Assembly: GCA_963801355.1 (NCBI GenBank)
Contig: CAWDEM010000008.1
Span: 1,920,001-1,984,000 of the forward strand
Length of the DNA stretch: 64,000 bases
From: Ignavibacteriota bacterium
Lineage (GTDB): Bacteria; Bacteroidota; Ignavibacteria; UBA10030; UBA6906
Direction of reading: 5' to 3'
Shown: positions 27 through 3,609 of the stretch, piece after piece
How the letters are laid out: each line of letters begins with the position of its first letter
Position numbering within the stretch: position 1 is the stretch's first letter
Notes under the pieces: generated by a model
Databases searched by the model: none
Seen by the model: the letters and a program-made list of their open reading frames with translations, nothing else
Told to the model about the DNA's origin: nothing
Program-made: the position numbers and the translations under genes

Positions 27-2606
27 CTACCGCACCACGATATTCACGAGTTTGTTTCTCACCACGATGATCTTGACGACCTGTTTACCCTCGGTATATT
101 TCCGGACACCCGCGTCCGCGGCGGCGAGTTTCTTCAGTTCCTCCTCCTGGGCCGTTGCCGGAACAGCAATCTTGCCGCGGAGCTTGCCGTTGACCTGGAG
201 GACCACCTCGACGGTATCGCTGTGAATCCGCGCCGGGTCATAGGAAGGCCAGGGTGCGTACGTCAGGCTCTCTGCATGCCCCAGTTTCTGCCAGAGCTCT
301 TCCGCCACGTGCGGTGCAAACGGCGCAAGGAGAAGAAGGAAGGGCTCCAGCACCGCCCGCGGACGGAGGTCCGCCTTCATCACTTCGTTCACAAAGATCA
401 TGCACTGGGAGATTACCGTGTTGAAGCGGAGAGCCTCAATGTCATCCCCCACCTTCTTCACCGTTGCGTGGTACACCCGCTCAAGTTCAGGTGTGGGCGT
501 GTCCGAGTTCAACCGGGGGTCCGTGTTGCCCTGTTCGTCGACGTACAGCCGCCAGACACGGTTCAGAAAACGGAAGACCCCGTCAACTCCCCTCGTGTTC
601 CAGGGCTTCATCTCTTCAAGGGGTCCCATGAACATCTCGAACAGCCGCATCGCATCGGCCCCGTATTCCTTCACGACGTCGTCAGGGTTCACGACGTTGC
701 CCCTGGACTTCGACATCTTCCGGGAATCCTCGCCCAGGATGATCCCCTGATGGCGAAGTTTCACGAAGGGCTCCCTGGTGCTCACATGCCCGAGATCGAA
801 CAGCACCTTGTGCCAGAAGCGGGCGTACATCAGGTGCAGGACGGCATGCTCCGACCCGCCGAGATAGAAATCGACGGGCATCCAGTAGCGTTCCAGCGCC
901 GGATCACAGAACGCCCGGGCGTTGGACGGGTCAATGTACCGGAGATAGTACCAGCACGAGCCCGCCCATTGGGGCATCGTATTTGTTTCGCGACGTCCTT
1001 TCAGTCCCGTCACAGGATCAACGACAGCGATCCACTCGGTCGCCAGTGCCAGAGGAGATTCCGTCGTACCGCTCGGCTGGAACTTCGTGAGGTCCGGAAG
1101 GAGAAGCGGCAGTTCATCATCCGCCAGGGGTTGCATCGTGCCATCTTCGAAGTGAACGATGGGGATCGGCTCGCCCCAGTATCGCTGCCGCGAAAAGAGC
1201 CAGTCCCGCAGTTTGAATTGTACCACCGGAGTTCCCAGGCCCCGCTTCTCCAACCAGGCGATGATGCGTGATTTTGCCTCGGGCGTTGTCAGGCCGTTCA
1301 GCGACACCTCACTATTGGCGGAATGCACCGCCACCCCGTCGCCGGTATAGGGCTCCTGCAGCACATTTCCTCCGCTGACGACTTCCACAATCGGCAATGC
1401 ATATCTGCGGGCAAACGCATAGTCCCTTTCGTCGTGCCCGGGCACCGCCATGATCGCACCGGTGCCGTATCCCATCAGCACATAGTCGGCAATCCACACA
1501 GGGATCTGAGCTCCGGTGGCCGGATTCACCGCCATGCCCCCCGTAAAAACGCCGGTTTTGTTTTGTTCGACATCCCGCTCGCGCTCGCTTTTGCGGCGGG
1601 CCTGTTCACGGTACGCTTCCACCTGTGCGCGCAGCTCCGGCGTTGTCAATGCATCCACAAGAGGATGCTCCGGCGAAAGCACCATGTACGTCGCCCCGAA
1701 GACCGTATCCGGTCGCGTGGTGAACACACGGAAGTATCCCGTCTGTCCTGCGATCGGAAAATCCATCATCGCGCCCTCCGACCGCCCGATCCAGTTCCGC
1801 TGCTGTTCGAGCGTGGATGCAGGCCAGTCAAGGTCCCGGACATCGTTCAGCAGCCGTTCCGCATAGGCGGTAATCCGCATCATCCATTGTCTCATGGGGC
1901 GGCGTTCAACGCTGTAGCCCTTGTCGACCCACTCGTCCACTTCTTCATTGGCCAGGACTGTGCCGAGCCCCTCGCACCAGTTGACAGGAATTTCCGCGAT
2001 GTAGGCGAGCCTGTAGCGTGCAAGGACGTCCTGTTGCTGTTTTCGCGTCATGCGTTGCCACTCTTCGGACGAAAACGGGACGTCTTCGGCGAGGCCTGCG
2101 GACCCCCGGGAGGCGAAGCGGTCGATGAGGGTCTGGATGGGACGGGCTTTATCAGCCTCCTGATCATACCAGGAGTTGTAGATCTGCAGGAAAATCCATT
2201 GTGTCCATTTGTAGTAGGCGGGATCTGTGGTATCCACTTCCCGTGCCCAGTCGTAGCTCAGCCCCAGCATCTTGATCTGCCGCCTGAACGTCGCGATGTT
2301 CTGCTCCGTCGTCGTGCGCGGATGAATGTTGGTCTGCATAGCGTACCGTTCCGCCGGAAGGCCGAACGCGTCCCACCCCATGGGATGCAGCACGTGGAAA
2401 CCACGCATCCTCTGGAAACGTGCAACGATATCCGTGGCGGTGTATCCCTCCGGATGGCCGACGTGCAGGCCTGCCCCCGAGGGGTAGGGATACATGTCGA
2501 GGATGTAGAGTTTGGGTTTCGAAGAAAGTGGATCCGTCCGGAATGTCTGCTGCTGGTCCCAGTACGCCTGCCACTTGGGTTCAATCGTCGCGAAGGGGTA
2601 CGCCAC
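27..2606 (-). CDS. leuS: Leucyl-tRNA synthetase
   Basis: 859 aa; class I aaRS motifs [14 protein letters not shown] (HIGH), TTRPDT editing domain, [23 protein letters not shown] start. Confidence 0.98.
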
Positions 2607-3549
2607 TGCTGTCTTCCTTGGTGCTTGCTGTCGGTGGATGTTGGGTGACTTGCGATTCCTCGAGATACAGGCGTGCAGTCATGAGGCTGCCGAGCCGGAG
2701 GCGCTCACGGAGCTCATCGGCGGTGGCACCGTGGCGTGCCATCAGCACGGCCGCGGTGTGCCGGAGGGAGAACGGGGTGATGCGGCGGTCCGGGTGCTGT
2801 TTGAGTCCGGCGGTGACGAGTGAAGCATTGATACGGTCGCGCACACCGCGCGTGGTCATGCGCTGGCCCCGGGTGCGGTTGCCCGCACTTGCAAAGAGCG
2901 GCTCTGCCGCCTCCGGGTGCCCGCGAACCGAGAGATACTGGTCGAGGGCGGCCCGCGCCTCCGGCTGCAGCAGCACGCGCTCGTCCTTCTGCTTCCGCCC
3001 TTTCCCCTGCACCAGCATCCAATGTCCGCGGTCGTCATTCGTCAGATCGCGGATGTCGGCACGCACGAGCTCGATTTCCGACAGGCCGCATTGGAGCATG
3101 AGCAGCAGCATGGCATGATCTCTGATGCCGCGCTCGTCCGGTGTGTGCGCGCCCGCGAGCAGGATCCGCACCTCCTCCTCGCTCAGAAAGTCTCTCGAAT
3201 GGGACGCCGGCCGGCGGTTGCCCCCGACGTACCGTGCGGGATTATCCTCCAGGACCTTCCGGTCCACCAGGTAGGCACAGAAACGGCGCAGCGCGGTCAG
3301 GTATGTAGAGACCGACACTTCCGACAATTTTCTGCGGACGGCCAGGTAGTGTTTATACCGGCGCACATCTTTCACGCGGAAACGGAAGTGCGGATCGCGG
3401 GGGAACCACCGGAGGAATTCGCGGAGCGCCCGCGTGTAGGTACCGCGGGTTTCCGGCGTGTCGCGCTTGAGGCTGGCAACGAAACCGTCGAAATGCCGTG
3501 TCAGGGCACGCGTGGAGAGGCGGACCTGCTTGAATGTCGGATCGTTCAT
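2581..3549 (-). CDS. Tyrosine recombinase/XerC-D-like fold protein with degenerate active site
   Basis: N-terminal SAM-like core-binding region (T..TY..AL..F, SV.TYL.ALR.F) and catalytic-domain motifs RD.A.L.L...GL, V.GKG, SLRH, T..LY. Start moved from the ORF-track 3636 to ATG 3549 (MNDPTF), downstream of the previous stop and a predicted promoter. Overlaps the leuS start by 26 nt. Confidence 0.8.
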
Positions 3550-3580
3550 GAATGCAGGATGAGAGAAAACGCAATAACAG

Positions 3581-3609
3581 AAGCTAACGAACTCCGGGGG
3601 AAGAAGCAA
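3581..3609 (-). promoter_or_regulatory. Putative sigma70-type promoter for recombinase-like gene and leuS
   Basis: Minus strand TTGCTT-17 nt-TAGCTT, about 30 nt upstream of ATG 3549. Confidence 0.45.

Follow-up and report, generated by a model that had tools for sequence, protein, structure and literature searches.

Tyrosine recombinases that have been inactivated and reused as DNA-binding proteins are already known, in the form of MrpR/YopR and TnsF, both of which are carried by mobile elements. MrpR (YopR) is the master repressor of the SPbeta prophage of Bacillus subtilis and has the tyrosine-recombinase fold (PDB 8A0A); the residues listed for it in Table 3 of the published study are V137/S138, K169, N254, V257/R258, V291 and Y304 (PMC10516654). 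In the experiments of that study it gave no recombination in vitro and bound repeated operator sites as a repressor, Tyr304 being important for both DNA binding and stability (PMC10516654). TnsF of the Tn6022-like Tn7 transposons is described as an inactivated tyrosine-recombinase derivative reused for site-specific DNA recognition, with N-terminal zinc fingers, tandem core-binding domains and no tyrosine pocket (PMC10293859). Here we analyse a gene of this superfamily in a 64,000-nt stretch of DNA from an Ignavibacteriota bacterium (contig CAWDEM010000008.1, positions 1,920,001 to 1,984,000; the whole stretch is called the window below). It lies directly upstream of leuS, the gene for leucyl-tRNA synthetase, and encodes a protein (P0001) belonging to a family in which half of the six catalytic positions carry other residues. 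We consider with moderate confidence that this is a domesticated DNA-binding protein of the host that derives from the Xer recombinases and does not cleave DNA, the absence of cleavage being a property that we infer from the sequence.

The closest described proteins by both sequence and structure are XerC, XerD and XerA. Like P0001 these have two domains (SAM-like and catalytic) with no arm-binding domain, and they are likewise chromosomal, vertically inherited and found among housekeeping genes. The family differs from them in that the first catalytic arginine (Arg-I) and both histidines (His-I and His-II) are replaced, the conserved C-terminal segment is lost and the scores lie below the equivalog cut-offs, with 114.7 bits against the NCBIfam cut-off of 335.15 for XerC (TIGR02224) and 102.5 bits against 329.6 for XerD (TIGR02225). 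XerC and XerD resolve chromosome dimers at a dif site near the terminus, with a partner recombinase and under control of FtsK, whereas the family is not known to be linked to a dif site or to FtsK. IntDOT, the integrase of CTnDOT, is an active enzyme of a conjugative transposon that has an arm-binding domain and keeps both histidines. Like the family, this integrase of the Bacteroidota is without Arg-I at the aligned position (PMC8138268). By contrast the family has also lost both histidines, and Arg283 is the only possible substitute for the missing arginine.

The best functional analogue of the family is MrpR. In both the lysine and tyrosine are kept while Arg-I, His-I and His-II are replaced (by S157, F260 and L286 in P0001 and by Ser/Val, Asn and Val in MrpR). 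There is no detectable sequence relationship between them, since 8A0A is absent from a profile search of PDB sequences (E<=1) and from the Foldseek matches listed, and MrpR is phage-encoded and controls lysogeny, while the family is chromosomal, lineage-wide and Xer-derived. The catalytic loss in the family was therefore independent. Unlike TnsF, P0001 comprises SAM-like and Phage_integrase domains only, and there are no transposition genes nearby.

The gene is an uninterrupted open reading frame (ORF) on the minus strand of 322 codons plus a stop codon. A TTG at 3636 could serve as an alternative start and would lengthen the frame, but this enters the SpoIIE-type gene on the upstream side, whose end is at 3584. 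The nine genome copies nearest to that of the window also begin (M..P..) at the position of the 3549 ATG, and a length of 322 amino acids is found in eight of the ten that were examined.

P0001 matches the Pfam family Phage_integrase (PF00589) with E=1.3e-19 and a score of 71 bits (cut-off 27.1), and its N-terminal SAM-like core-binding domain is recognized by PF13495 with 39 bits. The core-binding domain extends over residues ~1-107 and the domain with the catalytic fold over ~120-300, followed by a tail (301-322) that is disordered and not conserved. A model constructed with AlphaFold2 (AF2) on 145 aligned sequences has a mean predicted local distance difference test score (pLDDT) of 93.5 and a predicted template modelling score (pTM) of 0.87, and only residues 312-322 fall below a pLDDT of 50. 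Foldseek matches this model to XerA, the integron integrase IntI4, XerH, Cre and XerD with E values from 1e-14 to 1e-8 and a probability of 1.00. Having both the core-binding domain and the catalytic fold, P0001 is a member of the tyrosine recombinase superfamily. The intact 322-residue frame with the Xer/integrase fold that had been proposed in the initial annotation is thus borne out by the ORF, Pfam, AF2 and Foldseek results. Its span of 2581..3609 is correct at 2581, but the other end lies 60 nt past the ATG at 3549.

A profile of the family gave 21 matches to PDB sequences at E<=1, the best of these being XerD (E=3.4e-22) and XerA. The core-binding domain is strongly conserved, with T37, Y38 and R40 invariant in 36 diverse family members. 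Searches of the Atlas with P0001 returned XerD/integrase clusters of a generic kind, including one that is mostly Rhodothermota, and those of PHROGs generic integrase families only. PADLOC gave no match, so that membership of a defence system is not indicated. No informative fused form was found; a search for longer proteins gave two distant recombinases of 26-28% identity. We note that chain 14 of PDB 9i5v, a ribosome of Porphyromonas gingivalis, also matches the family over residues 19-298. This chain is named RaiA, with 401 amino acids (400 in PMC12123416), and its GLR, HxxR, LGH and Y motifs are canonical, so that it is a fusion of an XerC-like protein with a RaiA/HPF domain. The structural report models 34 of its residues only, and neither 'recombinase' nor 'XerC' occurs in its text (PMC12123416).

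At the active site, alignment by HMMER with Escherichia coli XerD (1a0p) places GLS of P0001 on GLR, PFSLRH on PHVLRH, RL on GH and LY on IY. In place of the R-K-H-R-H/W-Y set P0001 reads S157-K183-F260-R263-L286-Y295, so that three of the six positions are replaced, and this is likewise the case across the family, where the substitutes (Ser, Phe/Tyr and Leu/Ile) are unable to take over the roles of the lost residues. The initial annotation had called the same three substitutions (Ser for Arg-I, Phe for His-I and Leu for His-II) with the lysine, the second arginine (Arg-II) and the tyrosine kept. Alignment with XerD and the codons show that these are real, and its coordinate for the serine codon, 3079-3081, proved exact on a codon-by-codon check.

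The substitutions recur throughout the close relatives of P0001. A word-indexed protein search returned 1678 relatives, and residues were counted in the query and its best 120 matches (54-98% identity). Of these 121 sequences, 119 have Ser at position 157 and 117 have either Tyr (79) or Phe (38) at 260, while 286 is occupied by Leu in 119 and by Ile in two. Lys183, Tyr295 and the Arg-His at 263-264 are each present in 121/121. A scan of 185,579 species genomes gave 536 matching stretches, 445 of which encode a relative, and the best 80 loci (numbered with the prefix L below) were kept; together with the window these make 81 genome copies. They derive from metagenome-assembled genomes (MAGs) labelled Ignavibacteria/Ignavibacteriota, Kryptoniota, Kapaibacteria or simply 'Bacteroidota', with one Rhodothermales and a few odd labels. 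Ser157 is found in 80 of the 81 copies and Leu or Ile at 286 in 79/80, and Glu160, Lys183 and Arg285 are present in all 81. Position 263 is Arg in 72, Lys in seven, Cys in one and Thr in one. The possibility that homologues would keep the Arg and both His residues, raised by the initial annotation as a check on its reading, is therefore excluded by the protein counts at 157, 260 and 286. These comparisons indicate that the substitutions at Arg-I, His-I and His-II are traits of the family and not decay, and that the replacement of catalytic residues is ancient and clade-wide.

The boundary of the family can be seen among more distant sequences. In an exhaustive search of representatives at 50% identity (132 clusters at E<=1e-30) the pattern of the clusters closest to the query is [S/T]-K-x-R-H-[L/I]-Y, and canonical R-K-H-R-H-H-Y proteins prevail from ~35% identity to the query downward. 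Comparison of 42 strictly degenerate sequences with 80 canonical relatives reveals one clade-specific arginine in the catalytic domain. This is Arg283, present in the 90% consensus of the former and in none (0/80) of the latter; other clade-specific changes are Glu158, Gly235, Pro259, Ala271 and Ala292. One cluster, P0137, has the hallmark motifs of the family (GTYxRAL, RPxxHS[RK] and GNRxxGxRMTTR) and keeps R-K-N-R-H-H-Y (RKNRHHY) together with the canonical C-terminal motif. It looks like the ancestral, active state of the family.

The active sites of Cre and XerCD are coupled through the C-terminal segment, which packs on the adjacent protomer. Canonical relatives of P0001 share a motif after the tyrosine, approximately x-H-x-x-[DE]-R-x-x-N-x-A-E, in tails of 17-40 amino acids (median 21, n=80). 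The degenerate sequences have instead unrelated tails of low complexity, 1-36 amino acids in length (median 15, n=60), and some stop two to four residues past the tyrosine.

Further erosion is seen within the family and beside it. Arg-II is replaced by Lys in all seven Kryptonia copies, which are leuS-linked and lie inside the family clade, by Cys in L014 and by Thr in L080, so that nine of the 81 genome copies have neither catalytic arginine. Several 50%-identity clusters of the wider degenerate clade, seen among the protein representatives, also lack the Lys, Arg-II or Tyr; their catalytic positions read, for example, TKFKHIV, SKHSHII, NSNTLED and S-YHHIY. Such further-eroded clusters include P0152, P0153 and P0156; an Atlas search with P0156 gave generic recombinase clusters only, and a protein search with P0152 gave 12 matches. 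Taken with the lost C-terminal segment, the change of Arg-II to Lys in Kryptonia and the erosion in sister clades lean against catalysis.

The gene is under purifying selection. The ratio of non-synonymous to synonymous substitution rates (dN/dS) was calculated by the method of Nei and Gojobori for ten pairs, in two of which dS is unsaturated. In these two the ratio is 0.10 (window-L001) and 0.09 (L007-L055), compared with 0.07 and 0.09 respectively for leuS. Over all ten pairs the ratio for the recombinase-like gene ranges from 0.06 to 0.21, with dS close to or exceeding 1 in eight of them. Purifying selection, which the initial annotation had asked to be examined, is thus confirmed at a dN/dS of ~0.1, comparable to that of leuS.

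In a likelihood tree of the 81 copies and six canonical outgroups the family forms one side of a branch with a Shimodaira-Hasegawa-like approximate likelihood ratio test (SH-aLRT) support of 100, and its subclades track Ignavibacteria, Kryptonia and Kapabacteria. In a FastTree phylogeny of 145 representatives a single change between canonical and degenerate states suffices, although the separating branch has a weak support of 13. The gene is chromosomal and follows the taxonomy of its hosts, i.e. it is vertically inherited. Searches by tblastn of 72,556 plasmids and 50,697 phage genomes gave best matches of 35% and 31% identity respectively, in collections where Ignavibacteria are probably poorly represented.

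Some records require comment. Loci L015 and L018 both come from MAG PMJR01 (isolate fen_1276), which has two MATE-SpoIIE-STAS-RsbW-SpoIIE-rec-leuS blocks on different contigs (rec being the recombinase-like gene). The two copies are 57-60% identical to the query and lie in different sub-branches of the tree; a mixed bin is more likely than a duplication. For six members of the Kapabacteria-type clade the NCBI label clashes with the placement: L031, L044 and L056 are labelled Alphaproteobacteria, L049 Armatimonadota, L073 Patescibacteria and L076 Chloroflexota. L073 lies at zero branch length beside L067, and L076 clusters tightly with a Kapaibacterium record. These bins are probably mislabelled or contaminated.

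The positions of the gene, its catalytic residues and the adjacent genes are collected in Table 1.

Table 1. The recombinase-like gene, its catalytic positions and its neighbours in the window.
Feature	Coordinates	Strand	Remarks
Degenerate Xer-like tyrosine recombinase gene (P0001)	2581..3549	-	322 aa, ATG start, stop codon included
Ser157, Arg-I position, codon TCG	3079..3081	-	Canonical GLR reads GLS; HMMER alignment and codon check
Lys183, beta-hairpin Lys in GKG, kept	3001..3003	-	Codon check; 81/81 genome copies
Phe260, His-I position, codon TTC	2770..2772	-	HxxR reads FSLR; Phe/Tyr in most family members
Arg263, Arg-II, kept	2761..2763	-	Codon check; replaced in 9/81 genome copies
Arg283, three residues before the His-II position	2701..2703	-	Clade-specific; only candidate for a relocated catalytic Arg
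Leu286, His-II position, codon CTC	2692..2694	-	LGH/LRH reads LRL
Tyr295, nucleophile position, codon TAT, kept	2665..2667	-	Tyr in 80/80 genome copies covering the position
leuS, leucyl-tRNA synthetase, 859 aa, GTG start	27..2606	-	Overlaps the 3' end of the recombinase-like gene by its first 26 nt (2581-2606)
GAF-GAF-SpoIIE (PP2C) phosphatase	3584..5356	-	Ends 34 nt before the ATG of the recombinase-like gene
RsbW-like HATPase_c_2 kinase	5358-5783	-	Partner-switching cluster
STAS protein	5780-6133	-	Partner-switching cluster
Membrane GAF-SpoIIE phosphatase	6173-8275	-	Partner-switching cluster

The most constant feature of the neighbourhood is leuS, which is directly downstream on the same strand in 52 of the 80 loci, with a distance from stop to start of -26 to +93 nt in all 52. 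The 26-nt overlap with the GTG start of leuS, noted in the initial annotation and present in the window, is confined to its near relatives (8/52 loci, among L001-L009). Elsewhere leuS begins with GTG after a gap of 4 nt in two loci and with ATG 1-93 nt past the stop in 42. Loci from Kryptonia are among the 52, though their LeuS is ~43% identical to that of the window. The downstream LeuS has 41-44% identity to that of the window in Kryptonia loci L039, L041, L045, L047, L048 and L052, and also in L014, L017 and L061, compared with 59-92% in the other Ignavibacteria-type loci; adjacency of the two genes is kept in the divergent ones too. There may be two types of LeuS, or leuS may have been replaced in place. 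In the Kapabacteria-type clade corA is downstream instead of leuS, as confirmed with Pfam in ten loci and indicated by ORF size and place in three more, and recO is divergent upstream in 3/3 such loci scanned.

The upstream side is more variable. In the window a complete partner-switching module (3584-8275, minus strand) lies directly upstream; this is context only, and no sigma factor gene adjoins the module among the neighbours scanned. The partner-switching block is syntenic in many Ignavibacteria loci together with a gene for a MATE transporter (8279-9628 in the window). The end of a SpoIIE-type gene lies within 400 nt upstream in 28 of the 75 assessable loci and farther away in six, and there is none in 41. 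The other upstream genes vary by clade (cation efflux, PDZ, amino-acid kinase and DUF4013), and the upstream gene is divergent in L045, L033, L025, L042 and L075. Since the upstream neighbours are variable and often divergent, the conserved unit is rec-leuS, and where the upstream gene is divergent the recombinase-like gene heads this unit. Conservation of leuS/SpoIIE synteny, which the initial annotation had put forward as a test, therefore holds for leuS in the 52 loci; that of SpoIIE is narrower, and the Kapabacteria-type loci have corA.

Nothing in the surroundings suggests a mobile element. A search of 1-12000 for att-like repeats found short imperfect matches only. The sole tRNA gene is that for tRNA-Arg at 10417-10491, 7 kb away, and a scan with Rfam showed no other RNA element. 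There is no other recombinase and no transposase or phage gene among the 41 larger ORFs of the window that were scanned, and tblastn with P0001 (E<=1e-5) found no second recombinase-like match within ~7 kb in any of the 80 loci. Thus the claim that neither att sites nor mobile genes are near stands, on the repeat search and the scan of 41 ORFs. By contrast, a promoter belonging to the gene itself, also proposed in the initial annotation, finds no support. A sigma-70 scan of 2400-4000 gave no sites, and is not decisive for the phylum of the host. TAnnTTTG is the Bacteroidetes-type -7 promoter motif. It has seven matches in the window and none in 3550-5600, in a scan that is likewise not decisive for this phylum.

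Several open frames of up to 441 amino acids run antisense to leuS and the recombinase-like gene (3-1271, 1323-2648, 2420-3118 and 2917-3648, all on the plus strand); these most likely reflect the high G+C content rather than true genes. Farther away, 21943-64000 is a region of starch and glycogen utilization encoding GH13 alpha-amylases, GH57, GH31, a GDE_C debranching enzyme, CBM20, a LacI regulator and sugar transporters. Signatures of type IX secretion (Por_Secre_tail domains, PorV and a TonB-dependent receptor) occur within it. Together these fit an organism of Bacteroidota type.

How might such a protein act? If it is a domesticated DNA-binding protein, the two-domain, C-shaped clamp would bind specific sites on DNA without strand cleavage and exchange, and its role on the host chromosome would be regulatory or architectural. 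Binding of the DNA backbone and stability of the fold would then depend on the retained residues (Lys183, Arg263 and Tyr295), as has been reported of Lys169 and Tyr304 of MrpR, and loss of the canonical C-terminal segment would remove the coupling between protomers that a recombination synapse requires. The protein and LeuS would probably be made from one transcript. Some observations weigh against a non-cleaving protein. The coupling role of the C-terminal motif comes from Cre and XerCD and not from the canonical relatives of the family. A working active site would also show invariant Lys183 and Tyr295, together with the Arg or Lys found at 263 in 79/81 copies, and the clade-specific Arg283 is near the active site in sequence. 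Saturation mutagenesis of Cre, as reported, found that at Arg-I only His works, plus Lys in vivo, which favours inactivity, but that the His-I and His-II positions tolerate many substitutions (PMC2943603). Because of this tolerance the change of Arg-I to Ser is the only one of the three that is clearly disabling. Moreover, the Arg-I missing from IntDOT is reported to be supplied from elsewhere in the chain (PMC8138268).

The same observations lend some weight to a recombinase that is still active through a non-canonical site, such as the chromosome-dimer resolvase of the lineage. Ser/Thr157, Lys183, Arg263 and Tyr295 would be joined by a relocated charge, Arg283 or Arg285, in place of Arg-I. 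The near invariance of these residues, selection as strong as that on leuS and a core-like vertical distribution resembling that of Xer proteins would all be expected of such an enzyme; the dispensability of the histidines in Cre (PMC2943603) and the relocated arginine of IntDOT (PMC8138268) provide precedents, as far as those reports describe them. However, Arg-II itself has gone in Kryptonia, L014 and L080, both histidine positions are hydrophobic and not hydrogen-bonding, and the C-terminal segment conserved in canonical relatives is absent. Sister clusters have lost the Lys, Arg or Tyr, and Arg285 is no novelty because many canonical relatives also read L-R-H. We therefore regard continued recombinase activity as unlikely. 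Somewhat less likely again is a new catalytic constellation without Arg-I and either His, in which Ser/Thr157, Lys183, Arg/Lys263 and Tyr295 together with Arg283 would make up a recombinase or a nicking-closing enzyme like topoisomerase IB. Such an enzyme would have worked over evolutionary time at the level of classes, and in Ignavibacteria, Kryptonia and Kapabacteria it might be the only one that resolves chromosome dimers.

A comparably small probability attaches to the protein being the non-catalytic half of a heteromeric Xer machine, which would bind one half-site of a dif-like site and leave all the chemistry to a canonical Xer partner that it positions or activates. XerD and XerA are the best PDB sequence matches of this Xer-type protein, and the conserved core-binding domain (T37, Y38 and R40) fits a conserved chromosomal target. 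Dataset EV1 of a published survey lists nine 'Xer' and eight 'Integron'-subgroup recombinases for Ignavibacteria, over an unspecified number of proteomes (PMC8138268). It is thus plausible that a genome encodes more than one protein of Xer type, which weakly favours a partner of this kind. Set against this, the segment that would couple the protomers, by analogy with XerCD and Cre, is not conserved and is nearly absent in some members, and no canonical recombinase gene was found within ~7 kb in the 80 loci or among the 41 ORFs scanned in the 64-kb window. A decaying integrase remnant, or errors of sequencing or assembly in one record, is very improbable. It would account for the bare absence of three catalytic residues and nothing more, in the face of an intact ORF, the same substitutions in 80 independent species-level genomes, a dN/dS of ~0.1, the maintained synteny, a confident model and the absence of any mobile-element context. 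Decay or sequencing error is in fact refuted by the family-wide nature of the substitutions (best 120 matches and 81 copies) and the dN/dS. The homologues, dN/dS and leuS synteny give good support to the earlier proposal that this is a domesticated, housekeeping-linked gene rather than a decaying integrase.

We found no description of a host-owned, vertically inherited, leuS-linked family of pseudo-Xer proteins that extends over several classes in the open-access PMC or bioRxiv literature. In the protein search, members of the family carry automatic annotations of 'XerC/XerD' or 'integrase', and these labels can mislead surveys of mobile elements and of dif/Xer systems in these phyla. Should a new catalytic constellation prove to be the correct explanation, the minimal active site of the superfamily would have to be redefined. 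If instead the protein is a domesticated DNA-binding factor, as we favour, this would be a pseudo-Xer protein that is owned by the host, vertically inherited and linked to leuS, under selection at the level of a housekeeping gene across several classes of Bacteroidota. The sequences then form a natural series, from P0137 (RKNRHHY) through the core group with S-K-F/Y-R-L-Y to Kryptonia without either arginine and the sister clusters without the Lys or Tyr. Such a series lets the residues with which a recombinase fold binds DNA be told from those required for its chemistry.

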